Assembly (NCBI GenBank): GCA_003599635.1
Contig: QZIX01000009.1
Location: forward strand, 407-64,406
From: Candidatus Parcubacteria bacterium
Lineage (GTDB): Bacteria > Patescibacteriota > Patescibacteriia > Buchananbacterales > SURF-54
DNA: 64,000 nucleotides
Direction of reading: 5' to 3'
In this document: positions 4,826 to 63,094 of the stretch, piece by piece
Numbering within the stretch: the first letter of the stretch is position 1
How the letters are laid out: each line of letters begins with the position of its first letter
Position numbers and translations under genes: made by a program
The notes under the pieces: model-generated
The model's database searches: none
Told to the model about the DNA's origin: nothing
What the model saw: the letters and a program-made list of their open reading frames with translations, nothing else

Positions 4826-5045
4826 CATAACTGCAAAAACAAAAGTAGCTGGCAACGTTAGGGAAATAAGACGCTGGGCTGAAGAAAGAAACGGCCATCC
4901 GGCTGTAATTAAAAGTCAGGAAAGAATAACCTGGACATAATTTATGAAAATTTTTCAGAGAAATAATCTGGAATTTTTGTATCAGGAAAAAACTGCGGAA
5001 GGGGAAACAAGCCGTTTTTTTAAATTCGTTTCTAAGAAAAAATAA
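4818..5045 (+). pseudogene. decayed small conserved-hypothetical gene (no start codon, in-frame TAA)
   Basis: The frame reads TKVAGNVREIRRWAEERNGHPAVIKSQERITWT, then TAA at 4938-4940, then FMKIFQRNNLEFLYQEKTAEGETSRFFKFVSKKK. There is no ATG/GTG/TTG after the upstream stop at 4815-4817. It resembles, from memory, a widespread small family with WAEERGG.PA and LAFLYQ..T..GE.SRF motifs. Confidence 0.4.
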
Positions 5046-23719: not shown

Positions 23720-24166
23720 ATGAAAGGATTCACTTTAATTGAATTAATAATAGTAATTGTCATAATAATGATTCTGGGCGCACTGAGTGTGCCTTTTTTT
23801 CAATTTTTCCAGGCGTCATCGGAACTTTATACTTTGACTGACGAGGTGACAAGAACCTTGAGAAATGCGCAGATTTCAGCTGTGACGGGGCAAAATGATT
23901 CAAACTGGGGAGTTTATTTTAATGACACGGAAAAAAAATTCGTGCTTTTTAGAGGCGACAGCTACCTCAATCGTGATTCTGGCTATGACCTGGTTTTCGA
24001 TTTTCAGGAAATTTTTACCGTTGAAAATGATTTCGGAAATGAAGTTGTTTTTTCGAAATACCAGGGACTGCCTTCAGTCACGGGCACACTGACTTTAAGA
24101 AGCCGTAATAGCCAAATGCATCAGGTAATAATTAACGGTCTCGGCCTTATCAATGCTTCATATTAA
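23720..24166 (+). CDS. prepilin-type minor pilin / pseudopilin
   Basis: MKGFTLIELIIVIVII is a class III signal with cleavage at G|FTLIE (Glu5 present). Confidence 0.8.
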   Translation: MKGFTLIELIIVIVIIMILGALSVPFFQFFQASSELYTLTDEVTRTLRNAQISAVTGQNDSNWGVYFNDTEKKFVLFRGDSYLNRDSGYDLVFDFQEIFTVENDFGNEVVFSKYQGLPSVTGTLTLRSRNSQMHQVIINGLGLINASY

Positions 24167-27100
24167 TTGCCAAAAAGCTAGGGGAGTTTCTTTGGTTGAA
24201 GCGATAGTTGCTATTGCTGTTTTTTGTCTGTTAATAACGGCAATTGTCGGCTTAATAAGCAATGTTTATCTATCGCAGACGCAGTCAAGTAAAGAGCAGC
24301 AGGCTATAACCTTTGCCCAGGAAGGTCTGGAAGCGGCAAGATCCATCCGTCGAAGGGCGTGGAATTTATTAGGTCAGGGAACATACGGTCTGACAAACGC
24401 TGCCGGTTACTGGGACTGGAACGGCAGTCAGGATTTACAGGACGGTTTTATCAGAGAAATAACCGTTGAAGATGTTTATCGCAATCCGGCAGGCGATATA
24501 GTGTCGTCTCCGGGGGCTGATGACATTCCAGATCTGCAGACCAAAAAGATAATGTCGAAAGTTAGCTGGCCGGTTTTTCCCGGTTTTAACACTGATGTTT
24601 ATTTGTCCGAATATTTTACTAACTGGCAGTCAAAGGACTGGGCGCAGACAGACTGGTCAGGCGGACCGGGACAACAGAGTTTTTCCGATGCTTCAAAGTA
24701 TTTTACTGATGACGGCAATATCGACTATACTACCAGCGGAGAAATAAAACTTAAAAGCCTGTCAGGCGGCGGCTGCGGAAATAAGATTTGGGATTTTACC
24801 GATTTAAACTATACGCTAAGCGATCCGGCAAAAATTGAAATTTCAACTTCAGCACCCGGCTATGCCCAGCTGGTTTCAGTCGGGGGCGGCGATTATAACG
24901 GTCAAACTGTTAACCCCGGTTTTGACACCGGAATCGACCCCTGGGTTTTCAAATATGCCGGAGGCGTGACCCCAAGTTATTTTTGGCAAAATACCGGCGG
25001 CAATCCCGGAGGGTTCGGGCAAATTTCTTTTCCCAGCGCCAAAAATAAAACAGCCATCGGCTATTTCGAACAACCTTTTTTAGTCGATGCCCAAACAATC
25101 ACTCAGGCGCTTTTAAGTTTTGACGGAACCATAACTGAATATTCCCGACAGGCGGATATTTTTAAAATTTATGCTTTTGTCGATAATTTTTCCGGCACTC
25201 CCACTTTAGGACAGGAAGTCTGGTCTTCAGCCCATCAGACAGGCACCATCAGCTGGACGACTATTAGCAACATTGACGTTTCTTCCAAAATAAACGGACC
25301 CGGAATTTACTATTTAAAAATAGGCGTTTATGTCGATTACCCCGGATTAAACGCCAATTACATCGTCGGCTTGGACAACGCTTCTTTGTTTTGGTCAGGA
25401 GTTGCCGCCGGAAGTTATGCCACAGACAGGCCGACCGTCGTTCCTGCCGCGGATTTTTCGGTACCGGAAATTGAAATTTGGTCGTATTTTAATGAAACCG
25501 CCGAAAAAAACGGCGGAGAGATCTATTATCAGATTTCTGACGGCAGCCAATGGTATTGGTGGAACGGCAGCTGGATTACCGCTAACACGGGTGATTACAA
25601 TACCGCCGATATAGTTAATGCCAATATTTCTTCTTTTGCCACCAGCACGGCAAAAATAAACTTCCGGGCATTTCTTCAGTCAGATGGCAGCCAGTTTGTG
25701 CGGCTGGATAAAGTGGAAATCTCCTGTGCTAAAGTCGCTGTCTGGGATTTTACCGATTTAAACTATACGCTAAGCGATCCGGCAAAAATTGAAATTTCAA
25801 CTTCAGCGCCCGGCTATGCCCAGCTGGTCGGTTCAGGCGGCATGACAGGCGCTGCTGTATGGGATTTTACCGATTTAAACTATACGCTAAGCGATCCGAC
25901 AAAAATTGAAATTTCAACTTCAGCGCCCGGCTATGCCCAGCTGGTCGGTTCTACCGGCTCTTGTATCGGAACGTCAACCAGCTGTGATTTATTGGCAGAA
26001 GCAGATTGTAACAGCCAAAGCGGTTGCAGCTGGCAGCTGGGGCAGGGTTTTTGTCAGGATAACGGTACGTGTAATGGGCTGGATTCGGGAACCTGCAACA
26101 GTTGTGCCGGCGCCGGCTGCTCCAAAGCCGGAAAAAACTGCACCGGAACTTTGAATTGTTCCATCTACAGCCAAACGGAATGCGGCATTTGCAGCCAGTG
26201 TCTGTGGTCGGGAGGTGTTGGTACCTGTAGCGGTTATCCCACTTCCTGCGATTATTTTACCGACAATTTGTCCTGTGTGTCGCAGTTAGGATGCAGCTGG
26301 AATAATGGCAGTTATACCACTGACTATGTTTGGGTTTTGCCTAATTCTTCCTATACGGACGTTAATATGGAATACTGGACGTCGTTTACCGAAACAGCAG
26401 AAAAAAACGGCGGCGAAATTTATTATCAGCTGTCAAATGACAACGGCGCCAGCTGGTATTATTATAACGTGGGCTGGCAGCTTACAGTCGATCAATACAG
26501 CCCGGCAGCCGATATTTCAGCCAATATCGCTTCCTTTCCGGCATCGACCAAACAGATTAAATTTAGAGCATTTCTGCATTCGCCGACCGGAACGGAATTT
26601 GTCAGATTGGATAAAGTGGAAGTCGGCTGGGGAGCGGGGGGAGCGGGACTTGGTTCCTGTACGGGTACGCCAAATCCTTGCACATCATTTAGTCAAGATG
26701 AACAGGCATGTCTTGCCCAGACAGGTTGTATCTGGATGCAGGGTCAAGGTTCCTGCGAGAATGTCGGTTCTTGCAGCGGTTTAGATTCTGGGATCTGCAA
26801 TAGTTGTGCCGGCGCCGGCTGCTCCAAAGCCGGAAAAAACTGCGCCGGAACTTTGAACTGCTCAGTTTATAATCAGTCGGAATGCGTTCTTTGCAGCCAG
26901 TGTAACTGGACAGGAACTGTCAGCAGCTGCAGCGGCATTCCGAATCCCTGCGAACAATTTAATACTGAAAGCTCGTGCTTAAGCCAGATCGGATGCGCCT
27001 GGACATCGGGAGGCGCAGTGACTTTTCCGACAGATAATCCCTGGGTAAGACCAGATAATTCTTTTGCTGCTTCAAATATTCATGGCTGGAATTATTTTTA

Positions 27101-27713
27101 CGAAACAGCAGAAAAAAACGGCGGCGAAATTTATTATCAGCTGTCCGATGATGACGGTATAACCTGGCAATGGTTTGACGGTAATAACTGGTCGGTAATA
27201 AACACACCGTCCGATATGAATACCGCCGTGGCAATAAATCAAAAAATTTATCTTTTCCCCGCCGCCAGCCAGAAAATTTTATTCAAGGCGTTTTTACATT
27301 CCCCGACAGGATCTGAATTCGTAAAATTGGACGAGGTGAAAGTTGGCTACAGCGATGCCGGGGAGGGGGGCGGCGGATTTGTTTTGACCGGCATACTTGA
27401 ATCGTCGGCTTTTAATACCAATTCGCAGTCTTCCTTTAATATAGTTTCCTGGTCGGAAATACTGCCGTCAGTAAATGAAAATATAAAAATTCAGCTATCA
27501 ACCGCGCCTGATTCCGGAGGAATGCCTGGTGTCTGGACCGAATGGACAGGGATTTCTGGGGCGGGAACTTATTATGATGATTCCGCTGAAACAATAATAC
27601 CTTTTGAAAATAATCATAATTACCATCAGTGGATAAAATATCGGGCGGAACTTACGGGAGACGGTACTGATTCGCCTGTTTTGCATGAGATAAAATTAAA
27701 TTACACGCCATGA
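24153..27713 (+). CDS. giant pilin-like protein (1186 aa) with prepilin N-terminus, repeat modules, Cys-rich segments and Asp-box domains; putative pilus-associated adhesin
   Basis: The N-terminus KARG|VSLVEAIVAIAVFCLLI is a prepilin-like signal with Glu5. WDFTDLNYTLSDP.KIEISTSAPGYAQLV occurs three times. ETAEKNGGEIYYQ.S also occurs three times, with SxDxGxxW-like Asp-boxes. There are two Cys-rich modules. Confidence 0.7.
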   Translation: MLHINCQKARGVSLVEAIVAIAVFCLLITAIVGLISNVYLSQTQSSKEQQAITFAQEGLEAARSIRRRAWNLLGQGTYGLTNAAGYWDWNGSQDLQDGFIREITVEDVYRNPAGDIVSSPGADDIPDLQTKKIMSKVSWPVFPGFNTDVYLSEYFTNWQSKDWAQTDWSGGPGQQSFSDASKYFTDDGNIDYTTSGEIKLKSLSGGGCGNKIWDFTDLNYTLSDPAKIEISTSAPGYAQLVSVGGGDYNGQTVNPGFDTGIDPWVFKYAGGVTPSYFWQNTGGNPGGFGQISFPSAKNKTAIGYFEQPFLVDAQTITQALLSFDGTITEYSRQADIFKIYAFVDNFSGTPTLGQEVWSSAHQTGTISWTTISNIDVSSKINGPGIYYLKIGVYVDYPGLNANYIVGLDNASLFWSGVAAGSYATDRPTVVPAADFSVPEIEIWSYFNETAEKNGGEIYYQISDGSQWYWWNGSWITANTGDYNTADIVNANISSFATSTAKINFRAFLQSDGSQFVRLDKVEISCAKVAVWDFTDLNYTLSDPAKIEISTSAPGYAQLVGSGGMTGAAVWDFTDLNYTLSDPTKIEISTSAPGYAQLVGSTGSCIGTSTSCDLLAEADCNSQSGCSWQLGQGFCQDNGTCNGLDSGTCNSCAGAGCSKAGKNCTGTLNCSIYSQTECGICSQCLWSGGVGTCSGYPTSCDYFTDNLSCVSQLGCSWNNGSYTTDYVWVLPNSSYTDVNMEYWTSFTETAEKNGGEIYYQLSNDNGASWYYYNVGWQLTVDQYSPAADISANIASFPASTKQIKFRAFLHSPTGTEFVRLDKVEVGWGAGGAGLGSCTGTPNPCTSFSQDEQACLAQTGCIWMQGQGSCENVGSCSGLDSGICNSCAGAGCSKAGKNCAGTLNCSVYNQSECVLCSQCNWTGTVSSCSGIPNPCEQFNTESSCLSQIGCAWTSGGAVTFPTDNPWVRPDNSFAASNIHGWNYFYETAEKNGGEIYYQLSDDDGITWQWFDGNNWSVINTPSDMNTAVAINQKIYLFPAASQKILFKAFLHSPTGSEFVKLDEVKVGYSDAGEGGGGFVLTGILESSAFNTNSQSSFNIVSWSEILPSVNENIKIQLSTAPDSGGMPGVWTEWTGISGAGTYYDDSAETIIPFENNHNYHQWIKYRAELTGDGTDSPVLHEIKLNYTP
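24789..24874 (+). repeat. copy 1 of near-identical intragenic DNA repeat
   Basis: These 86 bp differ at one position from 25743-25828. Confidence 0.85.
25743..25950 (+). repeat. copies 2 and 3 of the same repeat, tandem with 117-bp period
   Basis: 25743-25833 and 25860-25950 (91 bp each) differ at one position (ggc/gac). Confidence 0.85.
25951..27360 (+). repeat. two tandem ~700-bp modules (Cys-rich segment + Asp-box domain)
   Basis: 26101-26158 versus 26803-26860 shows 2 mismatches in 58 bp. 26391-26434 versus 27102-27145 is 44 bp identical. The offsets are 702 and 711 bp. Confidence 0.75.
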
Positions 27714-28634: not shown

Positions 28635-30113
28635 ATGTTTAAAAAAGAAATTTTTGGTCTCGACGTATCGGATAATTCTCTTGAAGTTTTTCTGTTAAAA
28701 AGAATTTTCAGCCGTTTGAACGTGAAGTCATACGGGCGATCGCTGCTGGAAGGCGAAATTGTAAAGGATGGCATCATTAAAAAACCGGATTTGCTTTCGG
28801 CCGCCATTAAAAAACTTCTTTTAGAGTGCCGTCCCAGGCCTGTCAAAACCCGGTACTGCATCGTTTCATTGCCTGAATCGAAAGTGTATACCCATGTTTT
28901 CCGTCTGCCTCCGGATTTGGACAATGAACAGATAAAAAACGCCCTGCCCTTTGAGGCAGAAAAAATTATTCCATTTTCAACGGATCAGGTTTTTTTCGAC
29001 TTTAAAATAATCAGCCGGGAAAAAGATTATCAGGAAGTGTTTTATGCGGCAACCGAACATCAGATTATAGAATCATATAACAAAATGCTGCGACAAACGG
29101 GACTTGTTGCCGAAGCTTTTGAACTTGAGTCCATAAGCACGGCCCGAGCTTTGATTTCCTTAAAGGAAAGACAGGAGCCGGTTCTGATAATCGATATTGG
29201 TGCCAGAAGCACTAACTTGAATGTTTTTTACCGGGGAGCTCCGCATTTAAGCCGGGTCATTAATGCGGCGGGCAATCATTTCACCTCAGTAATTGCCAGA
29301 GAGCTTAAAATGTCGGAACAAAAAGCCGAAGAATTAAAACGCCATTCCGGTTTTGATCCGCAAAAATACGAAGCGAGGGTGATGTTTATTTTACAGAAAG
29401 AATTCACCCGGATAATAACCGAAGCGAAAGAGCTGATTAAATATTACGAAGACGAAAAAAACAAAAAAATTGCAAAAGTCATATTAACCGGCGGTTCGTC
29501 CCTGACACCCAAAATAAACGAATATTTTGCTGAAAATTTAAATCTTAAAGTTGAACCCGGAAACCCCAGGATAAAAATGGCAGACGGAGCATTGTATGCC
29601 AATGCCTTGGGATTGTCTATGAGAGGAGTTGAAAAAAAACCTTTTGTTTCTGACATTAACCTGAATTCCATCAGCGTGAAAAAAATGGAAATAATGCCGC
29701 CGTTGCAGGAAAAAAAGGAATGGAAAAAAATATATTTAGGTATCGGTTTATTGATTTTTTTCGGACTTATTCTTGCCTTTTTAATTTATGCCAGCCAGAA
29801 GCAGTTTTTTATTTTTAAATCACAAAATGCCATTTATGTTTATGATGAAACTGAAAATAAGCAAAATACCGAACAGGAAAAAACTTTAGTCGGTGAAATG
29901 GAAGCCGAAGGCGATAAGAATTTTGTGACTGTCAAAAATACGGGATCTTACTTAAATGTCCGGAAAGGACCCGGATACAACTACGAGATTATAAAAAAAA
30001 TTTACAGCGGCGAAAGATTCCAACTGCTTGATGAAAGTTCGGGATGGTATTTAATAAGTATTGACGAAAATCTTAAGGGCTGGGTTGTAGGGGAATATGT
30101 GCAAAAAGAATGA
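28635..30113 (+). CDS. pilM: PilM-like actin-fold pilus assembly protein fused to a TM segment and C-terminal SH3b domain
   Basis: GLDVSDNSLEV, IIDIGARSTNL and ILTGGSS are PilM/FtsA-like phosphate motifs. The TM segment is IYLGIGLLIFFGLILAFLIYA. The SH3_3-like tail is YLNVRKGPGYNYEIIKKIYSGERFQLLDESSGWYLI...GWVVGEYV. Confidence 0.75.
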   Translation: MFKKEIFGLDVSDNSLEVFLLKRIFSRLNVKSYGRSLLEGEIVKDGIIKKPDLLSAAIKKLLLECRPRPVKTRYCIVSLPESKVYTHVFRLPPDLDNEQIKNALPFEAEKIIPFSTDQVFFDFKIISREKDYQEVFYAATEHQIIESYNKMLRQTGLVAEAFELESISTARALISLKERQEPVLIIDIGARSTNLNVFYRGAPHLSRVINAAGNHFTSVIARELKMSEQKAEELKRHSGFDPQKYEARVMFILQKEFTRIITEAKELIKYYEDEKNKKIAKVILTGGSSLTPKINEYFAENLNLKVEPGNPRIKMADGALYANALGLSMRGVEKKPFVSDINLNSISVKKMEIMPPLQEKKEWKKIYLGIGLLIFFGLILAFLIYASQKQFFIFKSQNAIYVYDETENKQNTEQEKTLVGEMEAEGDKNFVTVKNTGSYLNVRKGPGYNYEIIKKIYSGERFQLLDESSGWYLISIDENLKGWVVGEYVQKE

Positions 30114-30656: not shown

Positions 30657-30672
30657 AAAAATAAAATTTTTT

Positions 30673-30706
30673 AAAAAAACCCCTCCTTTTTAGGAGGGGT
30701 TTTAAT
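30673..30706. terminator. rho-independent terminator (A-run / stem / T-run, potentially bidirectional)
   Basis: aaaaaaa, cccctcc (30680-30686), loop ttttta, ggagggg (30693-30699), then tttt. Confidence 0.85.
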
Positions 30707-30719
30707 TGCTTTTTAATTT

Positions 30720-30728
30720 TGTTATAAT
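30720..30728 (+). promoter_or_regulatory. extended -10 element TGTTATAAT
   Basis: tgttataat ends at 30728, 31 nt before ATG 30759. I see no clear -35. Confidence 0.35.
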
Positions 30729-30758
30729 AAAATTACCGAAAAAGCTCAAAGTAAACAT

Positions 30759-31268
30759 ATGGCAAAAGCGGTGTTTATAATAGCCCAAAATGAATTCAGA
30801 GATGAAGAGTTTTTAAAACCGAAAGAATTTTTAAATGATCGTCAAATTGAAACTCTTATCGCCGCTCCAAAAAAAGAAACGGCTTGGGGAAAATTGGGCA
30901 CGAAAGTGGAACCGGACCTGGCCTGGCAAGATGTAAGCGAGGAAGATTTTGACGTTATCTTTTTTGTCGGCGGTCCTGGCATTAAAGAATATGCCGACGA
31001 TCCCGTCGTTTTAAATCTGGCACGCAACTTTGACAAAGCCGGCAAAATTGTGGCGGCAATCTGTTCAGCGCCGACTTTGCTTGCCAATGCCGGAATTCTT
31101 ATAGGAAAGAAAGTTACCGCCTTTCCCTCCGAGGAGGAAAATATAGTTAATAAGGGAGCCGAATATACCGGCATGCCGGTAGAAGTTGACGGTAATATAA
31201 TTACCGGCAAGGATCACAACAGCGCTTTGGATCTGGCATCAAAAATTGCCTGGCAGCTGGGGGAATAG
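30759..31268 (+). CDS. DJ-1/PfpI family protein
   Basis: The nucleophile elbow AAICSAPTLLANAGIL, a length of 169 aa, and the FVGGPG motif. Confidence 0.85.
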   Translation: MAKAVFIIAQNEFRDEEFLKPKEFLNDRQIETLIAAPKKETAWGKLGTKVEPDLAWQDVSEEDFDVIFFVGGPGIKEYADDPVVLNLARNFDKAGKIVAAICSAPTLLANAGILIGKKVTAFPSEEENIVNKGAEYTGMPVEVDGNIITGKDHNSALDLASKIAWQLGE

Positions 31269-41915: not shown

Positions 41916-41944
41916 TTGAAATTAGTGAATAATTGTGGAATAAT
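41916..41944 (+). promoter_or_regulatory. promoter candidate positioned for a leaderless metG transcript
   Basis: TTGAAA at 41916-41921, a 17-nt spacer, then TGgAATAAT ending at 41944. ATG 41951 lies 7 nt after the -10. Confidence 0.35.
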
Positions 41945-41950
41945 ACAGGT

Positions 41951-43381
41951 ATGGAAAAAAGATTCTATTTGACCACAGCCATACCATATGTCAACGCAGA
42001 GCCGCATATCGGCTTTGCTTTAGAATTGGTGCAATCCGATGCTGTTGCCAGATTTCAAAGACTGTCAGGAAAAGAAACCTATTTTTTAACCGGCGCTGAC
42101 GAAAATTCATTAAAGAATGTTCAGGCAGCGGAAAAGCAGGGAACATCTGTCAGGGAATTAGTCGATAAGAATACAAAAAAATTTATTGATCTGACGTCGG
42201 CGTTAAATATTTCCAACAACCAATTTATAAGAACAACTTCTGCTAAACATTTTGCCGCTTGCCGCAAGTTATGGTCTTTGTGCAAGAAAGAGGACATATA
42301 TAAAAAGGAATACAGGGGTCTTTACTGCGTCGGATGCGAAACTTTTTACACGGAAAAAGAATTAATTGACGGCAAATGCCCCGAACATTTAAAAGAACCC
42401 GAGGTCGTGGAAGAAGAAAATTATTTTTTTAAACTTTCAAATTATCAAAAAAAACTGGAGAAGTTAATTTCCGGCGGCGAGTACGAAATAATACCCGGAA
42501 CCAGAAAGAATGAAATTTTAAGCTTCATTAAAATGGGTCTGGAGGATTTCTCCATTTCAAGATCCATGGCCAGGGCAAAAAACTGGGGAGTGCCGGTTCC
42601 TGATGATCCTGAACAGGTAATTTACGTCTGGTTTGACGCTTTAACCAATTATATTTCCGCGCTCGATTTTTCCGAAGACCAAAAACTTTACAAAAAATTC
42701 TGGCCTGCTGACCTGCATGTGATAGGCAAAGGAATAATCCGATTTCACGCCGTTTATTGGCCGGCGATGCTTTTGTCCGCCGGTTTGCCGCTGCCAAAAA
42801 AACTTTTTGTGCATGGTTATATTAATATTGAAGGCCAGAAAATTTCCAAATCATTGGGCAATGTTATTAACCCTTTTGATTTAATTTCAAAATACGGGGT
42901 TGAGCCGGTCAGATATTTTCTGTTTAGGTATATTCATCCTTTTCAGGACAGCGATTTTACAATCAAACATTTTGAAGAAAGCTATAATGCCGATTTGGCC
43001 AACGGCCTCGGCAATTTAGTAAATCGCGTCTCCAATCTGATAGAGACAAATGATTTGAAAATAAAAATAAAGCCAAAGCTGAAATTTTACAAAGAAGTGA
43101 AAGAGGCAATGGAAAATTTTTACTTTGACTCGGCTTTAAAATTCATCTGGCAGAAAATAACTGAAACGGACAAACTGATAAATGACACCAAACCATGGAT
43201 TCTGGCCAAAGAAAACAGGACCGAGGAGCTGGAAAATGTTTTGGCGCAAGCCGCTGACAATATATTAAGCATCGCCTTTAATCTGCAGCCATTTATGCCT
43301 GAAAGCGCTGAAAAAATAATCAGGCAGTTCGTTAGCAAGAAAATTAAAAAAGAGCGGGCTTTGTTTCCCCGACTTGTATAA
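41951..43381 (+). CDS. metG: methionine--tRNA ligase (short form)
   Basis: The PYVNAEPHIGF region (HIGH-type) and the KISKSLGN region (KMSKS-type). There is no C-terminal tRNA-binding appendix. Confidence 0.95.
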   Translation: MEKRFYLTTAIPYVNAEPHIGFALELVQSDAVARFQRLSGKETYFLTGADENSLKNVQAAEKQGTSVRELVDKNTKKFIDLTSALNISNNQFIRTTSAKHFAACRKLWSLCKKEDIYKKEYRGLYCVGCETFYTEKELIDGKCPEHLKEPEVVEEENYFFKLSNYQKKLEKLISGGEYEIIPGTRKNEILSFIKMGLEDFSISRSMARAKNWGVPVPDDPEQVIYVWFDALTNYISALDFSEDQKLYKKFWPADLHVIGKGIIRFHAVYWPAMLLSAGLPLPKKLFVHGYINIEGQKISKSLGNVINPFDLISKYGVEPVRYFLFRYIHPFQDSDFTIKHFEESYNADLANGLGNLVNRVSNLIETNDLKIKIKPKLKFYKEVKEAMENFYFDSALKFIWQKITETDKLINDTKPWILAKENRTEELENVLAQAADNILSIAFNLQPFMPESAEKIIRQFVSKKIKKERALFPRLV

Positions 43382-50716: not shown

Positions 50717-51019
50717 ATGAGGACAGAAATTGCTTTTTGGGTTTCAACAATCGTTGCCGTAGTATCTTTGTTTATGAACATACTGCAAGTCTTCGGCAAA
50801 AGACGCATCCAAAACAAAATATCAATTTGGTCAAGGGATGCCAAAGGGATGGTAACGTCCATAGTTGGAATGCTTAAAAACATCAAACGAAAAAGGATAG
50901 TCACTATGGCTGACGCCGCCACCAATCTGGAAACGCTTAAAAATTTTGCTAACAGCATGTTTGTCAGTCTTGAAGAAGAATTGGGCAGGAATAAAAGGGA
51001 AATATCAGAGAAAAAATAA
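50717..51019 (+). CDS. hypothetical protein with N-terminal TM segment
   Basis: The 100-aa ORF follows the previous gene by 5 nt. Confidence 0.4.
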   Translation: MRTEIAFWVSTIVAVVSLFMNILQVFGKRRIQNKISIWSRDAKGMVTSIVGMLKNIKRKRIVTMADAATNLETLKNFANSMFVSLEEELGRNKREISEKK

Positions 51020-51050
51020 ACCGCAGGTTCGGTTATTGCTAATAAATAAT

Positions 51051-52061
51051 ATGAGTTTAGAGGAGCAGCTAAAACAATTAAGAAATAAATTTTTGCATGA
51101 AATCGGCAGGGCAAAGAATATACAAGCCCTGTCTGATTTGGAAATCAAATTTTTGGGCAGAAAAGGAGAAATGAGCAGAATTTTAAAGGGTTTAAAAAAT
51201 TTATCAGGTGAAGAAAAGCCAAAAATCGGCGCTTTGGCCAATGAGCTCAAAAATCAAATTGTAAATGATTTAAATAAGGCGTCGCAGGTAATAAAAGGCG
51301 AAGCAAAAGAAGAATTAATCGACCTGACTTTGCCCGGGAAAAAAGTAATGTACGGGCGCTTACACCCGATTACTCTGGTTAAAAATGAACTGGCGGATAT
51401 TTTTACCTCGATGAGCTTCATGGTTTTGGACGGGCCGGAGGCGGAATCAGATTTCTATAATTTTGAGAGCTTGAACATTCCGCCATATCATCCGGCACGC
51501 GACATGCAGGATACTTTTTACCTTAAAGACGGTAATGTCTTGCGGACCCAGACTTCCAATATGCAGGTTCGGGCGATGCAAAAATACGGCCCTCCCCTGC
51601 GGGCTGTTTTTCCCGGACGCGTTTTTAGAAATGAAGCGACCGATGCATCTCATGAAACCAATTTTTTTCAGTTTGAGGGGCTGATGATAGATAAAGACAT
51701 TAATATAGGAAATCTCGTCGCCACGATGCAGGAACTAATTTCGGGAGTTTTGAAAAAACAGGTAGAAGTGCGCTTGCGCCCCGGCTATTTTCCTTTTGTT
51801 GAACCCGGCTTTGAAATGGATGTCGAGTGCTTAAACTGCGGCGGCAAAGGCTGTCCGGTCTGCAAACATTCGGGCTGGGTGGAAATTTTCGGCTGCGGTT
51901 TGGTGCATCCCAATGTTTTAAAATACGGCGGTATTGACCCGAAAAAATGGTCGGGTTTTGCTTTTGGCCTTGGCCTGAACCGCCTGGTTATGGTCAAATA
52001 CGGCATTAACGACATCAGATTGTTTATGTCCGGGGATTTAAGGTTTTTGAAGCAGTTTTGA
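51051..52061 (+). CDS. pheS: phenylalanine--tRNA ligase alpha subunit
   Basis: Class II motifs (HPARDMQDTF, FRNE, GFAFGLGLNRL). I prefer ATG 51051 (MSLEEQLKQL...) over the track start at 50946, which overlaps the upstream gene. Confidence 0.95.
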   Translation: MSLEEQLKQLRNKFLHEIGRAKNIQALSDLEIKFLGRKGEMSRILKGLKNLSGEEKPKIGALANELKNQIVNDLNKASQVIKGEAKEELIDLTLPGKKVMYGRLHPITLVKNELADIFTSMSFMVLDGPEAESDFYNFESLNIPPYHPARDMQDTFYLKDGNVLRTQTSNMQVRAMQKYGPPLRAVFPGRVFRNEATDASHETNFFQFEGLMIDKDINIGNLVATMQELISGVLKKQVEVRLRPGYFPFVEPGFEMDVECLNCGGKGCPVCKHSGWVEIFGCGLVHPNVLKYGGIDPKKWSGFAFGLGLNRLVMVKYGINDIRLFMSGDLRFLKQF

Positions 52062-52062
52062 T

Positions 52063-52332
52063 ATGTGGCTTTGGATTCTGTCGTCAATGGGGTTAATAGG
52101 CGGATTGATAATTATTTCAGGATATCTGCCGCAGATTATCAAACTTTTAAAGGTAAAAGATTCCACAGGAATTAGCATAGGCGCATGGTTGTTTTTTTTG
52201 ATAGGAAATCTATTACTACTGGTTTATGCCGTTAGCACAAAAGATTTAGTTTATATAACTCTTGAATCATTATCATGTACCGCGATATTACTTATAGTTT
52301 TGTTAAGTATTAAGTATAAGCACAAGGTTTAG
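52063..52332 (+). CDS. PQ-loop / SemiSWEET-like 3-TM membrane protein
   Basis: 89 aa with three TM helices. The PQ motif lies in the first helix (GYLPQIIKLLK). It sits between pheS and pheT. Confidence 0.65.
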   Translation: MWLWILSSMGLIGGLIIISGYLPQIIKLLKVKDSTGISIGAWLFFLIGNLLLLVYAVSTKDLVYITLESLSCTAILLIVLLSIKYKHKV

Positions 52333-52400
52333 CTTAAAGAAGGTTTGATGCAAATGTTATCTTGAGCCGTAGGCCACCTTAAAACCGGATAACTATAATT

Positions 52401-54794
52401 ATGAAAGTATCCATAAACTGGTTAAAAAAATACGTCGATATTCCAAATAATTCATTGAAACCTAATGAGCTGGCTTTAAAATTGACCTTGTCAACAATGG
52501 AGGTGGAAGATGTAATCGATATGTCCTCAGCACTAAAGGGCGTAGTTATAGGCAAAATGGTTGAAATAAAAAAGCACCCGAATGCTGATAAGCTTCATGT
52601 GGCAAAGGTTGACGTAGGCAATAAAATGATTCAGGTAATTTTTGGGCAGGTGGTTAAATTGAAAGTCGGGGATATGCTGCCCATAGCTGTTGCGCCGGTT
52701 ACCTTGCCCACGGGAACAAATATCAAGAAAGCAAAAATCAGGGGTATTGAATCAGAGGGCATGTGCTGTTTAGACAGCGAGCTTGGAATTTCGGAAGAAG
52801 ATAAAGTTACGTTTTTTACAGACAAAGTAAAACCAGGTACACCAGTGGCCGATGCAATGAATTTACCAAGGGACGTGATTTTGGATATTGAAAATAAGTC
52901 CATAACTCACCGTCCTGATTTATGGGGGCATATCGGCATGGCCAGGGAAGTGGCGGCAATATTAGGCAAAAAGTTAAAGGAACCTAAGCTTTTGCCGGTT
53001 AAAACCAAAAAAGAGCTTGATTTGAAAGTCGAAATAAAAGATAAAAATGCCTGCCCGAGATACATCGGAATTGCAATATCGGGAATAAAAATTGCGCCGT
53101 CGCCTGTATGGATGCAGAAATTATTGTCTTCAGCCGGAATAAGGCCTATTAACAATATCGTCGATATTACCAATTTTGTTATGCTTGAGTTTGGCCAGCC
53201 GATGCATGCTTTCGATATCCGCCAGATTGAAGGTGGCAAAATAATAGTAAAGAAAGCCCAATCGGGGCAAGAATTTATTACGTTAGATGGGCAAAAAAGG
53301 CAGCTGACTTCGGAAGACCTGCTGATCAATGATACCAAAAGAGCAGTTGCTTTGGCGGGAGTTATGGGAGGTTTAAATTCGGAAGTCAAAGACGATACTA
53401 AAACCATTATTTTGGAGTCGGCAAACTTCAGCCCGGTTGTTATACGCAAAACATCTGCCCGTCTTAATTTAAGGACTGAAGCATCGGCAAGATTTGAAAA
53501 AAGCTTGGACCCAAATATGGCCGAAAAAGCCGCTGTCCGCGCCGTTAATTTGATTTTGGAAATTATTCCCGGAGCATACGTCAGCAGCAAAATAGCAGAC
53601 ATAAATTATTCAAAATCAAAAAAAATTAAGATAAAATTAGATCTGGATTTTTTGCAGAAAAAAATAGGTGAAAAAATTCCTGATAAAAAGGTAATTGAAA
53701 TCTTAAAAAATCTTGAGTTTAAAGTGAATAAAAGCAAAAATTTTTTATCAGTCGAGGTGCCCGGCTTTAGGGCGATGCGCGATGTTTCAATCCCCGAGGA
53801 TTTGGTTGAAGAAGTGTCAAGAATATACGGCTTTCAGAATATTAAGTCATCTTTACCGCAGATTCAAATAAAGAAACCAGAATTAGATAAAGAACTGGCA
53901 TTGGAAAGGACAGTAAAAAACTTTCTGGTTGGCGCGAACTTCGCGGAAACCTACAATTATTCTTTTATGACCGAAAAGGACGCCAAAATTTTCGGTTACA
54001 ATGAAAAAAATCTGGTTGAATTAAAAAATTACGCTGCTGCCGATCAAAGATTTTTAAGGCCCTGTCTGGTGCCGGGACTGATTAAAAACGCGGAACATAA
54101 TCTGCCGTACTTTGATGAAATCAAACTATTTGAACTGGGGCGTGTTTTTAAAAACGAGCCGGGCGAATATAAAACCGGCAAGGGCGACGGTTTTTTACCA
54201 AACCAGCCAAAACGGCTTTCCGGAATTATCGTAAGCAAAAATTCTAAAGATTTATTTTTTTCGGCCAAAGGGATAGTTGAATCTCTGGCCCAATATCTGA
54301 ATTTAAATATTTCTTTTAAGGATAACGATTATCTTTGGGTTAAAAACAGGCAGGGGCTGGAGGTCGTGTTTAACGGCAAACCATTGAAGCACAATTACGT
54401 TTATCTTTTTAACAGACAGGTTTACGATATTAAGGCGGAAGCGGCAATTTTTGACCTGAATTTTACCCAGCTGGCAAAATTGCCTGTTGAACAAAAAAAG
54501 TATTCGCCGATTCCTCAATTTCCTGAAATAAAAAGAGACCTGGCGGTTGTGACCGGCGAAAACATTTTATGGGCGGATGTTAAAAATGAAGTTGCGGCAG
54601 CGGACCCCTTGATTAAAGGAATAGAATATTTGAGTGTTTTTTCCAATGCTGGTCTGGGTATGAATAAAAAAAGTTTGGCATTTTCCATAATCTTCCGCTC
54701 TGATAAAAGAACGCTGCTGTCGGAAGAGGTGGATCAAATAATAAAAAAAATATTAAAGAGGCTGGAAGAAAAATTCGGTGCCAAACTTAGATAG
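52401..54794 (+). CDS. pheT: phenylalanine--tRNA ligase beta subunit
   Basis: N-terminal tRNA-binding domain (HPNADKL), then B3/4, B5 and FDX-ACB domains, 797 aa. Confidence 0.95.
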   Translation: MKVSINWLKKYVDIPNNSLKPNELALKLTLSTMEVEDVIDMSSALKGVVIGKMVEIKKHPNADKLHVAKVDVGNKMIQVIFGQVVKLKVGDMLPIAVAPVTLPTGTNIKKAKIRGIESEGMCCLDSELGISEEDKVTFFTDKVKPGTPVADAMNLPRDVILDIENKSITHRPDLWGHIGMAREVAAILGKKLKEPKLLPVKTKKELDLKVEIKDKNACPRYIGIAISGIKIAPSPVWMQKLLSSAGIRPINNIVDITNFVMLEFGQPMHAFDIRQIEGGKIIVKKAQSGQEFITLDGQKRQLTSEDLLINDTKRAVALAGVMGGLNSEVKDDTKTIILESANFSPVVIRKTSARLNLRTEASARFEKSLDPNMAEKAAVRAVNLILEIIPGAYVSSKIADINYSKSKKIKIKLDLDFLQKKIGEKIPDKKVIEILKNLEFKVNKSKNFLSVEVPGFRAMRDVSIPEDLVEEVSRIYGFQNIKSSLPQIQIKKPELDKELALERTVKNFLVGANFAETYNYSFMTEKDAKIFGYNEKNLVELKNYAAADQRFLRPCLVPGLIKNAEHNLPYFDEIKLFELGRVFKNEPGEYKTGKGDGFLPNQPKRLSGIIVSKNSKDLFFSAKGIVESLAQYLNLNISFKDNDYLWVKNRQGLEVVFNGKPLKHNYVYLFNRQVYDIKAEAAIFDLNFTQLAKLPVEQKKYSPIPQFPEIKRDLAVVTGENILWADVKNEVAAADPLIKGIEYLSVFSNAGLGMNKKSLAFSIIFRSDKRTLLSEEVDQIIKKILKRLEEKFGAKLR

Positions 54795-59172: not shown

Positions 59173-60312
59173 ATGCCATCCGAGGTAACAAAATTTTACA
59201 AATACACAGCCATTTTTTTTGTTTCTTTGGCTCTTTTCTTGATGATCGGTATCTATAACATGGGCATGGGTTCGGTAAAAATAATTATTTTTCCTTCGCA
59301 ATCCACGATAGATGCTGAATTTATAATTGATGTCCGTGAAATGCCTTTTAATCCCATTGAACTTTCAGAAAATGAAATTTCTGGCAGAATATTTGAAGTG
59401 ACCAGGGAAGGTAAGAAAAAATACCTGCCCACTGGGTCGAGGTTTGTTTCAGGAAGCTCAGCCGGCAAAGTTACCATTGTCAATAACTATTCCAAAGACC
59501 AGACCCTGGTGAAAACCACCCGGCTTCTTTCATCCGAAGGTATACTTTTTAGAACAAGCAAGGATATAGTTGTTCCGGCCGGCGGAAAAGTGTCAGTTGA
59601 AATCTATCCGGACAATCCCGATAAATTCACGGAAGTTTTACCGGGAAGGTTTACAATTCCCGGTTTGTGGGCGGGGTTGCAGAATAAAATTTACGGAGAA
59701 AGCGATACGAAATTGTCCAAAACCGGCTATGAAATAAAAATTGTCACCGCTGAAGATATGGCCAAAGCCGAGGAGGATTTGAAAAACGTTCTTTATCAGG
59801 AGGCATTAAATGAAGTTAATGCTCAGCTGACGCCGGCTGAAAAAATATTAACCAAAGTGGTTGAAAGCGATATTGAACAAAACCTGTCATCAGCCGAAGC
59901 GGGTGCGGAAATTGATGAATTTGAAGAAAATCTGAAAGTAAAAACTGTTTTTGTCGTTTTTGACGAAAAAAATTTATTGAAAAAAGCGGAGGAAAAATCC
60001 CAAGAGTTGCTGCCTTCGGGAAAACGGCTGTCGGGGCTCGGGCTGGAAAACCTAAGTTATGAAATTGAAAAGTACGATATAGCAGATAAGGCCGCTAATT
60101 TAAAAGTACTGATAAGCGGGCAGGCCATGCTTACCGGAGAAAGTTCAATTTTTGACAAGGAAAAACTGACGGGAAAAACAGCCGAAGAAATAAAAAATTA
60201 TTTACTGGAATTTGAAGAAATTAAAGATGTGGAAGTAAAATTGACGCCGTCATGGGCCAAAAAAAGCCCTTCGGCAGCTGACAGAATTGAAATCGAAATT
60301 AATTCCGGATAA
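59173..60312 (+). CDS. membrane-anchored hypothetical protein
   Basis: N-terminal TM segment (AIFFVSLALFLMIGIY). The central ..GKVTIVNNYSKDQTLVKTTRLLSSEGILFRT..VVPAGG..SVEI is faintly reminiscent of baseplate-J-like annotations, but this is unverified. Confidence 0.5.
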   Translation: MPSEVTKFYKYTAIFFVSLALFLMIGIYNMGMGSVKIIIFPSQSTIDAEFIIDVREMPFNPIELSENEISGRIFEVTREGKKKYLPTGSRFVSGSSAGKVTIVNNYSKDQTLVKTTRLLSSEGILFRTSKDIVVPAGGKVSVEIYPDNPDKFTEVLPGRFTIPGLWAGLQNKIYGESDTKLSKTGYEIKIVTAEDMAKAEEDLKNVLYQEALNEVNAQLTPAEKILTKVVESDIEQNLSSAEAGAEIDEFEENLKVKTVFVVFDEKNLLKKAEEKSQELLPSGKRLSGLGLENLSYEIEKYDIADKAANLKVLISGQAMLTGESSIFDKEKLTGKTAEEIKNYLLEFEEIKDVEVKLTPSWAKKSPSAADRIEIEINSG

Positions 60313-60424: not shown

Positions 60425-60453
60425 TTGACATTATTTTTTTATGGTTGTATGCT
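60425..60453 (+). promoter_or_regulatory. sigma70-like promoter for the T-box leader
   Basis: TTGACA at 60425-60430, a 17-nt spacer, then TATGCT at 60448-60453. Confidence 0.55.
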
Positions 60454-60459
60454 TAAAAT

Positions 60460-60639
60460 CAAAGCGATTGAGGCGGCTACCAACCGCCTATTGACCAAAC
60501 CAATTTTCGTCAAGGCGAAACTAAGCTTTAAAAAAACAAGCGGTCCGGCTGTTGTAGCGCCGGATAATGTGGGTGGAACCGCGGGGTAAATGCCTCGTCC
60601 CAGAAATTGATTTTTCAATTTTTGAGACGAGGTTTTTTT
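60460..60639 (+). promoter_or_regulatory. T-box riboswitch leader (threonine specifier candidates) with intrinsic terminator
   Basis: The conserved T-box sequence aatgtGGGTGGAACCGCGG lies at 60566-60584. A Stem III-like hairpin tccggc/gccgga lies just upstream. The terminator is cctcgtc (60593-60599) paired with gacgagg (60626-60632), followed by ttttttt. The strand cctcgtccc is shared with the antiterminator. Thr codons sit in loop contexts: GAA-ACU-A at 60517-60523 and ACC at 60479-60481. Confidence 0.75.
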
Positions 60640-60798
60640 GAACCCGTGTTATTGTCGAATGTTATGTTGCCGTTTATGCGAGTGGATGAACCATACCGTA
60701 CAATATTTATAGATGGGATTTGTTAACTCCATTCTCTGAATATACAAAAATATCATTTCGTAGAGAATGACAAATAGAAATAATATTTATAAAATACT

Positions 60799-61347
60799 GT
60801 GATCTGCCAAAAAATTTTAAAGGGGAAAAAAGCAAATCTGCGGCCATTAAAAATTTCCGATGCTCACAGATGGGTTAATTGGCTTAATGACAGGGAGGTC
60901 AACCAATTTTTAGAAATTACGCGAATTGATCTTAAAGGCGAGAAGAAGGCTATTTTAGGAATGCTAAAAGACAAGAATAATTATCAATTTGCCATTGAAA
61001 CCAAAGATGGAATTCATATCGGCGGCTGCGGTTTAAAAGATATTATAAGAAACGGCAGATGTGAATTGGGTATAGTTATAGGGGATAAAAATTACTGGTC
61101 AGCCGGCTATGGCACAGATGTCATCGGACTATTGCTGAAATTTGGTTTTGAGAGGTTAAATTTAAAACGTATATATCTAAGATGTAATAAATATAATAAA
61201 CGCGGCATCAGGTGCTATAAAAAGTGCGGCTTTAAACATGAGGGGAGGTTAAGAAAACATATATATAGAAAAGGAAAATTTTGGGATGAAATAAGGATGT
61301 CTATATTAATTAACGAATATAATAAAAAATATGGAAAAAGAAAATAA
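60799..61347 (+). CDS. GNAT family N-acetyltransferase (RimJ/RimL-like)
   Basis: LRPLKISDA, ...GYGTDVIGLLLKFGFERLNLKRIYLRCNKYNKRGIRCYKKCGFKHEG. GTG start. The 3' end overlaps thrS by 17 nt. Confidence 0.8.
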   Translation: MICQKILKGKKANLRPLKISDAHRWVNWLNDREVNQFLEITRIDLKGEKKAILGMLKDKNNYQFAIETKDGIHIGGCGLKDIIRNGRCELGIVIGDKNYWSAGYGTDVIGLLLKFGFERLNLKRIYLRCNKYNKRGIRCYKKCGFKHEGRLRKHIYRKGKFWDEIRMSILINEYNKKYGKRK

Positions 61348-63094
61348 TAAATTGAACACAATTCGCCACTCAACCTCTCACATTATGGCTTATGCCGTAA
61401 AAAATTTACTGGCTAAAGACGGTAAGGTTTTGTTCGGCATCGGTCCCACGATCAAAGACGGTTTTTATTATGATTTTGATTTGCATCGACCGTTAGTGCC
61501 TCTTGATTTGCTAAAAATAGAAAAGGAAATGAAAAAGTTGATAAGCAAGAATTTGGAATTTAAAAGAGAGGAAATTACGGTTACAGAAGCCAGGAAGAAA
61601 TTTTCAGAACAGCCTTATAAATTGGAATTGATTGGCGATTTGGAAAAAGAAGGGGAGAAGAAAGTCAGTATCTATACGTGCGGCGATTTTACGGATTTAT
61701 GCGCTGGCCTTCATATCAAGTCAACCAAAGAAATAAAAGCTTTCAAATTGCTAAAAATTGCCGGTGCTTACTGGAAAGGATATGAAAAAAATCTTCAATT
61801 GCAGAGGATCTACGGAACTGCTTTTGAGACTCAAGAAGAGCTTGATGCATATTCGGAAAGGTTAAAAATGGCAGAAGAAAGGGACCATCGCAAGCTGGGG
61901 AAAGAACTTGATTTATTCGTATTTTCTGATTTAGTCGGACCCGGTATGCCACTTTATACTTTCAGAGGATCAATAGTGAGGGATGAAATAATTCAATATT
62001 CAAACCAGTTGCAGAAAAAAATCGGATACGAGACTGTTCATACGCCTAATGTAAACAAAGCAGAACTGTTTAAAATATCCGGACACTACGACAAGTATAA
62101 AGACGATATGCTGGAGGTAAGGTCGCATTACACAAATGAGAAATACTATTTAAAGCCGATGAATTGCCCCCAGCATACTCAAATTTATGCGTCACATACA
62201 AGAAGTTACCGAGAATTACCAATACGTATTGCCGATTTTGCCAATCTTTACCGCGATGAAAAGCCGGGCGAGTTAAGCGGATTGTCACGCTTACGCTGTT
62301 TTTCACAAGACGACGGACATTGTTTCTGCCGAGAAGACCAAATTGAACGGGAATTTGCGGCGGTATTAGGGATAATAAAAGAGGCACTGGTTACTTACGG
62401 CATGGACTATTGGGTAAGGCTGTCGCTGCGAGATAAGAAAAAGAAACAAAGCTATATTGGTGATGATAAAGTTTGGGAAAAATCGGAAAAAATATTGGAA
62501 AGCATTTTAAAAAATAACAAGCTTGAATATAAAAAAGCCGAAGGCGAAGCCGCTTTTTACGGACCTAAAATGGATATTATGGTCAAAGATGCTCTCGGTC
62601 GCGAGTGGCAGATTTCAACCATTCAGCTTGATTTTAGCATGCCTGCGCGTTTTGGTTTAAAATATGTTGACGACAAAGGCAAAGAAAAAACTCCGGTTAT
62701 GATTCACCGCGCCATTGTCGGTTCGCCCGAACGCTTTATGTCGATTTTAATTGAGCATTATGCAGGCGCTTTCCCCGTCTGGCTGGCCCCGGTCCAGGTG
62801 CAGATAATTCCTGTCGGATCGACTTTTGTGGAACATTCCAACAAATTGGCAAATGAATTCAAGGAAGCTAAAATAAGGGTTTATGTCGACGACCTTAATG
62901 AAACCGTGGGCTATAAAATTCGCAAAGCCGAAAAACAAAAAGTGCCGTATATGCTGGTAATAGGCGAAAAGGAGGCGAAAAGCGATGACTTAAACGTCAG
63001 AATCAGGGGAGAAAAGGATGTCAAGACAATCAGCCGTTTGAAATTCATCAAAGAAATAGAAAAACAAATAAAAAACAGAAGCGATAGAATTTAA
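61331..63094 (+). CDS. thrS: threonine--tRNA ligase (lacks N-terminal TGS domain)
   Basis: HSTSH in the second additional domain, class II motifs (RDE..G..RL, FYGPK), and an anticodon-binding domain. At 587 aa it starts at the editing/SAD region. Confidence 0.95.
   Translation: MEKENNKLNTIRHSTSHIMAYAVKNLLAKDGKVLFGIGPTIKDGFYYDFDLHRPLVPLDLLKIEKEMKKLISKNLEFKREEITVTEARKKFSEQPYKLELIGDLEKEGEKKVSIYTCGDFTDLCAGLHIKSTKEIKAFKLLKIAGAYWKGYEKNLQLQRIYGTAFETQEELDAYSERLKMAEERDHRKLGKELDLFVFSDLVGPGMPLYTFRGSIVRDEIIQYSNQLQKKIGYETVHTPNVNKAELFKISGHYDKYKDDMLEVRSHYTNEKYYLKPMNCPQHTQIYASHTRSYRELPIRIADFANLYRDEKPGELSGLSRLRCFSQDDGHCFCREDQIEREFAAVLGIIKEALVTYGMDYWVRLSLRDKKKKQSYIGDDKVWEKSEKILESILKNNKLEYKKAEGEAAFYGPKMDIMVKDALGREWQISTIQLDFSMPARFGLKYVDDKGKEKTPVMIHRAIVGSPERFMSILIEHYAGAFPVWLAPVQVQIIPVGSTFVEHSNKLANEFKEAKIRVYVDDLNETVGYKIRKAEKQKVPYMLVIGEKEAKSDDLNVRIRGEKDVKTISRLKFIKEIEKQIKNRSDRI

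Follow-up and report, generated by a model that had tools for sequence, protein, structure and literature searches.

A probable tRNA-Thr-responsive T-box leader with an ultrashort Stem I upstream of a GNAT gene and thrS in a Candidatus Parcubacteria bacterium

Contig QZIX01000009.1 (assembly GCA_003599635.1) of a Candidatus Parcubacteria bacterium contains, within the 64,000-nt stretch analyzed here (hereafter the window), the gene of a GNAT N-acetyltransferase followed by thrS, the gene of threonine--tRNA ligase (ThrRS). Positions 60425-60639, upstream of both genes, very likely comprise a promoter and the leader RNA of a T-box transcription attenuator that responds to tRNA-Thr and controls the GNAT-thrS operon. 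The leader is about 180 nt long, carries a default-on terminator and is, as judged from sequence comparison, a member of a distinct T-box subclass that is widespread upstream of thrS in the Candidate Phyla Radiation (CPR)/Patescibacteria. The initial annotation of this DNA had proposed a Thr-specific T-box with a reduced Stem I in a CPR-like genome. This core proposal is upheld, and both the GNAT and the ThrS protein (RJR31630.1) carry the NCBI name Candidatus Parcubacteria; in the JGI data the window lies on a contig of 162 kb (Ga0104756_1000020). The promoter, the T-box sequence, the Stem III-like hairpin, the terminator and both Thr triplets were all found where that annotation had placed them.

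Leader architecture and conservation

A scan of the window against Rfam at gathering thresholds gave zero matches. In a permissive E-value scan the T-box family RF00230 matched positions 60458-60605 at 41.3 bits, with E=8e-8 in the local search and E=1e-5 for the whole 64-kb window. This was the single T-box match in the window, and every other family had an E-value of at least 0.04. The 3' half of the alignment (Stem III, T-box and antiterminator) is close to the consensus, and the score is low because about 90 Stem I positions of the model are replaced by 17 nt, in line with the earlier remark that Stem I is short and that the usual distal AG-bulge or distal-loop motifs could not be found. 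A covariance model of the class, R1, was built from 30 distant relatives, leaving out the window and its three closest relatives. R1 matched 60456-60601 at 93.8 bits (E~8e-20), with no other match in about 95 kb of the contig. Held-out class members reached 52-85 bits and canonical T-boxes 25-41 bits, and the score of the window leader was as high as that of any class member. The covariance-model scan proposed as a check on the initial annotation thus gave a significant Rfam match below the gathering score and a strong match to the class model.

All elements of the leader lie on the forward strand. The promoter (60425-60453) consists of a -35 element TTGACA (60425-60430), a 17-nt spacer and a -10 element TATGCT (60448-60453), with 10/12 matches to the consensus, and would place the transcription start near 60459-60461. 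Seven promoter-like sites were found in the scan versus 5.6 expected, and the promoter taken alone is not above chance. A TTGAC[AT] with a spaced -10 element was found upstream of the leader in 25 of 36 related leaders, at a distance of 40-70 nt, mostly 40-52 nt.

The decoding domain is closed by the helix P1, formed by AAAGC (60461-60465) and GCUUU (60525-60529); it was recovered by an unconstrained minimum free energy (MFE) fold, and the two strands covary. The 5' junction strand GAUUG (60466-60470), whose A, U and G are invariant or nearly so in alignments of the class, occupies the position of the canonical GA/K-turn motif, with UG there instead of GA. It is followed by the specifier hairpin AGGCGG / CUACCAA / CCGCCU (60471-60489), an ultrashort Stem I arm of 6 bp with a 7-nt loop resembling an anticodon loop. 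The loop presents the putative specifier codon ACC (Thr, 60479-60481), complementary to the anticodon GGU, together with the conserved purine A60482. A variable insert (60490-60519) can form one or two small hairpins, P3 and P4; it contains no conserved sequence motif, and alternative folds exist. The 3' junction strand ACUAA (60520-60524) corresponds to the class consensus N-C-U-A-A, in which C, A and A are invariant, U occurs in at least 90% and the first base may be A, C, G or U.

Downstream of P1 a linker (60530-60542) ends in the purine string AAGCG, an instance of the RRRNG motif described 5' of Stem III (PMC7778990) and conserved in the alignment as AAG-N-G. Stem III (60543-60565) has covarying base pairs, 94.4% paired, and is followed by AA (60566-60567). 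The T-box sequence AAUGUGGGUGGAACCGCGG covers 60566-60584; its bulge UGGA (60574-60577) would pair with the tRNA 3' end UCCA. The antiterminator (60570-60602, strands GGGUGGAACCGCGGG...CCUCGUCCC) is composed of helix A1 (60570-60573/60599-60602), the 7-nt bulge UGGAACC, which begins with UGGN as in other T-boxes, and helix A2 (60581-60585/60594-60598), with a free energy of -8.4 kcal/mol. The 3' half of the antiterminator is at the same time the 5' strand of an intrinsic terminator, whose hairpin spans 60593-60632 and whose U7 tract occupies 60633-60639. The terminator has -22.4 kcal/mol as a hairpin and -23.5 kcal/mol in context. The alternative pairing noted in the initial annotation was confirmed by folding: antiterminator and terminator share nucleotides 60593-60602, exclude each other and stand in the canonical order of energies. 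A simple terminator scan overlooked 60593-60639 and flagged just the reverse strand of the specifier hairpin, so folding was needed. Folds of the whole leader by MFE gave misleading long-range pairings, and comparative analysis was therefore relied upon.

Relatives were collected from genome and metagenome scans. The genome pattern did not include the specifier hairpin and required ACT at the junction; the metagenome pattern left both candidate triplets free and required ATTG and AAGC. Together with loci found earlier these scans yielded at least 37 distinct leaders of one architecture, and all counts given here refer to the matches listed. L156, found later through GNAT homology, is the 38th locus. 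In each of the 33 leaders with enough sequence thrS is located downstream. Those leaders whose source is named come from the Patescibacteria group, from Parcubacteria, Buchananbacteria, Falkowbacteria or Kuenenbacteria, all of them CPR/Patescibacteria; two MAGs bear labels that are generic or doubtful. Looking up ThrS clusters for the GC-rich class members gave names for two clusters, both of the CPR. The common order is P1 5' strand, G-AUUG, a 6-bp hairpin with the loop NNACCRA, an insert of 11-38 nt with zero to two hairpins, N-C-U-A-A and the P1 3' strand, continued by a linker ending in AAG-N-G, Stem III, AA, NGGUGGAACCGCG... (antiterminator with A1 and A2) and the terminator. A hairpin of -10 kcal/mol or stronger containing the CGUCC strand and followed by a U-tract was present in at least 32 of 37 leaders; most of the remaining ones have weaker U-tracts or lie on truncated contigs.

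The pairing of these helices is conserved by compensatory change. In the fixed-length module 85.9% of cells are paired, a value biased by the way in which P1 was placed, compared to 25-42% in slid controls, and none of 500 shuffles attained the observed score. In the specifier hairpin 97.7% of cells are paired and each of the six pairs has undergone compensatory change; the inner pairs of P1 show up to five pair types among 36 leaders. As P1 was placed in part by pairing and the leaders were selected by their hairpin, more weight is given to how many pair types occur than to the paired fraction. When 30 distant relatives were aligned plainly with MAFFT, 92.8% of cells in the five helices were paired, with P1 at 79%, and in the same number of relatives A1 was 100% and A2 95.9% paired, the outer pair of A1 covarying as G-C, A-U and C-G. 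RNAalifold unaided recovered four helices, namely the specifier hairpin, Stem III, A1 and A2.

Some variation occurs within the class. L132 has ACG for ACC in the loop, L139 has the bulge UGGG for UGGA, and L156 the core ACCGUC for ACCGCG. In L030, L120, L043, L068 and L108 an extra hairpin lies within the loop of antiterminator helix A2. In many members (for example L013, L014, L019, L024, L113 and L119) the first variable hairpin starts with UCC, ends with GGA(U) and directly follows the specifier hairpin; this semi-conserved hairpin is lacking in the window leader. Candidates of the same architecture with other specifiers (seven with AUC, others with GGA, CGU or GUA) proved on inspection to be chance matches, lying either in coding sequence or in canonical T-boxes, as did all remaining pattern matches, and no class member specific for an amino acid other than Thr was among the matches listed for the pattern requiring ATTG and AAGC.

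Specifier, mechanism and relation to known T-boxes

By comparison across the class the specifier is the loop triplet ACC at 60479-60481. The triplet is ACC in 36 of 37 leaders and ACG, also a Thr codon, in the remaining one, and the search patterns had left it free; the purine that follows is A, or G in two leaders. Thr T-boxes favor specifiers ending in C or A (PMC7778990), to which ACC conforms. The initial annotation had offered two Thr candidates, this one and an ACU at 60520-60522 in the context GAA-ACU-A. The former stood, with ACC in the loop and thrS constant downstream; the context of the latter proved variable. With UGGA as the bulge in 36 of 37 class leaders, the discriminator of tRNA-Thr is predicted to be U73. 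Indirectly this is supported by the canonical T-boxes from the genome scan, in which UGGA is likewise found in the three thrS leaders (L010, L020 and L029) and UGGU in all eight that were assigned to other genes. ARAGORN detected no tRNA-Thr gene in the window, 31 kb of adjoining contig and about 40 related loci, where only Ser, Gln and Lys tRNAs were found, all in the related loci; no tRNA gene of any kind was detected in about 95 kb of the contig (window, L001 and L155).

Transcriptional T-boxes generally need a long Stem I with an elbow-binding double T-loop platform, by which tRNA is caught quickly (PMC7583486). With the canonical T-boxes (RF00230; for example those of Bacillus subtilis thrS and tyrS) the leader shares a specifier matching the aminoacyl-tRNA synthetase, the order RRRNG-Stem III-AA, the UGGN bulge, an antiterminator (helices A1 and A2) in competition with an intrinsic terminator of greater stability, the Thr specifier ACC and the UGGA of other thrS T-boxes. 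It differs in that Stem I is a 6-bp hairpin with an apical specifier, without a specifier-loop S-turn, AG bulge or distal loop platform, that GAUUG/CUAA stand in place of the GA/K-turn motif, and that Stem II and the IIA/B pseudoknot are absent. In addition, the decoding domain is closed by the long-range helix P1, which also encloses the zero to two variable hairpins.

Ultrashort-Stem-I translational ileS T-boxes of Actinobacteria were reportedly described by Sherwood et al. in 2015. Ultrashort Stem I's with an apical specifier belong to translational, mostly actinobacterial ileS T-boxes, and naturally truncated Stem I's function just in translational switches and together with a Stem II S-turn plus pseudoknot (PMC7583486); TBDB models the short class as translational and searches it in Actinobacteria (PMC7778990). 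Common to this class (structures from Mycobacterium tuberculosis and Nocardia farcinica; TBDB class II) and the leader are the short Stem I, the apical specifier plus purine, the canonical discriminator domain and the absence of an elbow-binding platform (PMC7583486). The ileS class controls translation through a Shine-Dalgarno sequestrator and needs the K-turn, the S-turn of Stem II and also the IIA/B pseudoknot (F-box) to bind tRNA, whereas the leader described here has a terminator with U-tract, precedes thrS instead of ileS and stems from the CPR instead of the Actinobacteria. In a test at the level of motifs only, the Stem II S-turn (GAA...AGUA) was found in none of 37 leaders and an F-box-like match in two, which is chance level.

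The glyQS-type T-boxes resemble the leader in the order of domains after Stem I (a short purine-containing linker, Stem III and the terminator platform) and in the absence of Stem II, which in glyQS is attributed to the extensive pairing of codon GGC with anticodon GCC (PMC7583486). Their Stem I has remained long and includes a K-turn, a specifier-loop S-turn and a distal platform, in contrast to the ultrashort one with codon ACC found here. The combination of an apical specifier, a terminator and a P1-closed domain with no S-turn or F-box indicates a T-box variant of new structure, neither canonical nor of the ileS type. A limited search of the literature gave no publication that connects T-boxes with the CPR, Patescibacteria or Parcubacteria.

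The predicted folding of the leader, with its P1-closed domain, ACC-A hairpin, Stem III and competition between antiterminator and terminator, is well indicated by the sequence together with its comparison to relatives. Following the established T-box mechanism, the anticodon GGU of tRNA-Thr would pair with the loop ACC during transcription. An uncharged tRNA would then use its 3' end, predicted to be UCCA, to pair with the bulge UGGA; the antiterminator would be stabilized, and RNA polymerase would continue into the GNAT gene and on into thrS. With charged Thr-tRNA this pairing would be impossible, and the terminator would form. The GNAT gene, which appears inserted between leader and thrS and translationally coupled to thrS, would be co-induced when the charging of tRNA-Thr falls.

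Several points weigh against reading the leader as a tRNA-Thr-responsive attenuator. Its RF00230 score of 41.3 bits is less than half of the gathering score of 93. The position of the P1 3' strand was picked in part by best pairing, which is the source of the bias in the paired fraction given above, and P1 is weak (3 bp) in a Buchananbacteria subgroup. The class members are known from sequence alone, and anticodon GGU and discriminator U73 of the cognate tRNA-Thr are predictions. The RNA has neither the Stem I distal platform nor Stem II, both of which are held to be necessary (PMC7583486), and fast, tight tRNA binding is left unexplained. A promoter-like sequence in the spacer downstream of the terminator, ATGACA-17-TAAAAT at 60767-60795, may allow some T-box-independent transcription of GNAT and thrS.

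Should this last site act as the main promoter of GNAT and thrS, the T-box terminator might just end an upstream transcript or be a decaying relic. The site has 10/12 promoter matches, and the 159-nt spacer is unusually long beside those of relatives whose thrS begins about 30-110 nt past the terminator. Promoter-like sites occur here at a density expected by chance, however, and this one coincides with an ATG-led short open reading frame (ORF) in the ancestral start region, is not conserved in L004 and has the wrong spacing in L002. The leader itself is under strong purifying and compensatory selection, with an R1 score as high as that of any member, and we regard a dominant spacer promoter as improbable. 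Even less credit is given to decoding by ACU 60520-60522 in a canonical-style specifier loop on the 3' side of Stem I, with the ACC hairpin being merely a distal structure. ACU-A does lie just 5' of the closing helix, the topological place of canonical specifier loops, and ACUAA occurs in 20 of 36 aligned leaders. The first base of the triplet is not fixed, however (ACU, CCU, GCU and UCU, with ACC and CCC besides), whereas thrS and the loop triplet ACC do not change; a variable first base followed by fixed C-U-A-A next to a covarying P1 strand marks ACU as part of a structural junction and not as a codon. The preceding GAA is not conserved, the constancy of ACU in the set from the first scan is circular because the pattern required ACT, a matching host tRNA is rare for specifiers with a final U (PMC7778990), and in the MFE fold of the window the A of ACUAA can form the last pair of P4. 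Hardly conceivable is a translational T-box like the actinobacterial ileS class, in which the 3' alternative helix would hide the ribosome-binding site. Descriptions of an ultrashort Stem I with an apical specifier have until now concerned translational T-boxes (PMC7583486, PMC7778990), but the alternative helix is here a GC-clamped hairpin of 40 nt followed by U7, the relatives likewise have hairpin and U-tract terminators (at least 32 of 37), and the first start codon lies 159 nt downstream of the U-tract, which points to a transcriptional platform and not to a Shine-Dalgarno sequestrator.

The GNAT gene and the organization of the locus

An AT-rich spacer of 159 nt (60640-60798), in which a conserved internal promoter was not seen, separates the U-tract from the GTG start of the GNAT gene (60799-61347, forward strand, 182 aa). 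The start at 60799 aligns with the ATG of the homolog in L004, and coding conservation starts there. The GNAT ORF overlaps by 17 nt with thrS (61331-63094, forward strand, 587 aa), which matches TIGR00418 at 672.6 bits versus a cutoff of 383.65. The spacer also contains an 11-codon ORF, ATGACAAATAGAAATAATATTTATAAAATACTGTGA (60767-60802), which ends in a TGA that forms GTGA with the overlapping start codon of GNAT; ATGACAAATAGAA occurs in L002 too, where it is read in frame with GNAT and extends its N-terminus.

The GNAT is a RimJ-RimL-SpeG-like protein of Pfam family PF13302 (Acetyltransf_3), with 88.8 bits versus a gathering score of 25.4. None of the NCBIfam equivalogs reaches its cutoff (SpeG 59.9 vs 218, RimI 22.3 vs 86.4 and RimJ 18.9 vs 190 bits). 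In a PDB sequence search the nearest solved structures are of the SpeG type (E~1e-13), followed by RimJ-/RimL-like chains at 1e-5 to 5e-7. The protein thus shares domain family and size with the Rim-/SpeG-like GNATs (RimJ, RimL, the C-terminal domain of MccE, and SpeG), but its placement under a T-box and its overlap with thrS are not a known context for these, and a literature search found no link. The initial annotation had considered acetylation of aminoacyl-tRNA conceivable but unproven. This idea found no support in the present data: the protein is Acetyltransf_3/SpeG-like, TacT, AtaT and ItaT are absent from its 39 PDB sequence matches (E<=1e-3) and from its NCBIfam matches, and its neighbors are a gene for a hypothetical protein of 379 aa and thrS, with no antitoxin gene beside it.

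Among the 38 loci a GNAT gene lies between leader and thrS in seven; in the other 31 thrS follows the leader directly. The GNAT subfamily of the window is found in six loci (window, L002/L030, L004, L156, L005/L013 and L119). The closest homologs (65%, 61% and, in Buchananbacteria, 44% identity, and a later one with 48%) share the gene order dnaE - hypothetical - GNAT - thrS, and each of these syntenic loci has a sub-threshold Rfam T-box match or a class-model match upstream; for RF00230 the matches upstream of GNAT-thrS reach 52.6 bits in L005, 45.5 in L004 and 22.2 in L002. The seventh locus, L015, has a different and shorter GNAT in the same slot (4524-4979, minus strand of the locus; Acetyltransf_1 at 30.5 bits, BLASTP against the window GNAT E=0.043) and apparently represents a second, independent association of a GNAT with thrS. 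The presence of a GNAT in just seven loci marks thrS as the conserved target of the T-box and control of the GNAT as lineage-specific. The earlier suggestion of an acetyltransferase under tRNA-Thr control therefore holds for the present locus, where GNAT and thrS lie directly downstream of the leader, and does not extend to the class as a whole. In L005 (5241-5993, on the contig of L013) the first gene after the T-box is an ORF of 250-260 aa without a Pfam match, followed by GNAT and thrS.

What the GNAT does next to thrS is approached from its distribution, and the balance tips slightly toward an unrelated passenger, a housekeeping Rim-/SpeG-like enzyme (for example a ribosomal protein or polyamine acetyltransferase), with the T-box serving thrS alone. 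The 31 loci without a GNAT include those of the closest ThrS relatives, L120 (70% identity) and L124 (65%). GNAT homologs of 44-48% identity adjoin rarA/mgsA or an amidase gene, or sit in a cluster tsaE - GNAT - GNAT - tsaB, as does the 48%-identical homolog in L158 (1905-4040), which is the classical rimI position in t6A gene clusters. Profile and structure comparisons give generic types as their best hits (SpeG, PseH, AAC(6') and Rim), each below its cutoff, and together with PDB sequences and gene context they pointed to no particular substrate. On the other side, the GNAT-thrS pair with overlapping or nearly abutting frames is kept down to about 50% ThrS identity (window, L002, L004, L156, L005 and L119), and the unrelated second GNAT in the slot of L015 hints at selection for linkage. 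A bond between GNAT and ThrRS, in which the T-box would induce ThrRS together with a GNAT that detoxifies a threonyl-adenylate mimic or a threonine antimetabolite by N-acetylation, is considered unlikely. It is drawn by analogy to MccE and RimL, which acetylate aminoacyl-adenylate analogues (processed microcin C) with little side-chain specificity and confer resistance (PMC3817062), a precedent for resistance through Rim-family GNATs. The regulatory logic of a T-box would suit a response to ThrRS inhibition, under which uncharged tRNA-Thr accumulates, and the translational coupling to thrS fits as well; however, the nearest solved relatives are of the SpeG type and not RimL or MccE, and most class members have no GNAT. 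The two unrelated GNAT subfamilies recruited to one slot between leader and thrS are the sole hint of a functional linkage.

Among the other genes of the contig, metG (41933-43381) and pheS plus pheT (50946-54794) have a T-box match neither by Rfam nor by the class model, and within the sequence examined T-box control is limited to thrS. A sub-threshold match to Phe_leader (RF01859) at 30672-30784 on the minus strand, with 35.1 bits versus a gathering score of 55 and E=0.043, is probably spurious. The 379-aa ORF between dnaE and the T-box (59173-60312) has no Pfam or NCBIfam match, and a gene of similar size occupies its position in L002 and L156. An ORF of 1186 aa (24153-27713), without a Pfam match at E<=1e-5, sits among genes resembling those of type IV pili and type II secretion systems, with a PilB-like gene at 20739-22421 and a PilM-like gene at 28635-30113.

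Significance of the leader class

The leader extends T-box regulation to the CPR/Patescibacteria, for which the limited search had found no published report. Four members scanned against Rfam gave 22-53 bits versus the gathering score of 93; annotation at Rfam thresholds would thus miss the class, and the same is expected for databases that draw on Rfam, such as TBDB. The leader draws interest chiefly because it would have to bind tRNA in the absence of the known auxiliary contacts. A conserved, covarying class that has a terminator and neither of the two tRNA-binding modules is a natural minimal system for studying what tRNA capture and charge sensing require. It is possible, though this proposal is put forward only tentatively, that the ACC hairpin, the GAUUG/CUAA-P1 junction and the discriminator suffice for co-transcriptional sensing of tRNA-Thr charging, without elbow or Stem II/pseudoknot contacts, and that the leader is a minimal transcriptional T-box. 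If true, this would run counter to the current rule by which a transcriptional T-box depends on the distal platform of Stem I, and would define a CPR-wide class invisible to standard Rfam annotation. The recurrence of a GNAT between leader and thrS gives a starting point for tracing a possible acetylation function linked to ThrRS, and a tRNA-specific switch of about 150 nt would be attractive for engineering.

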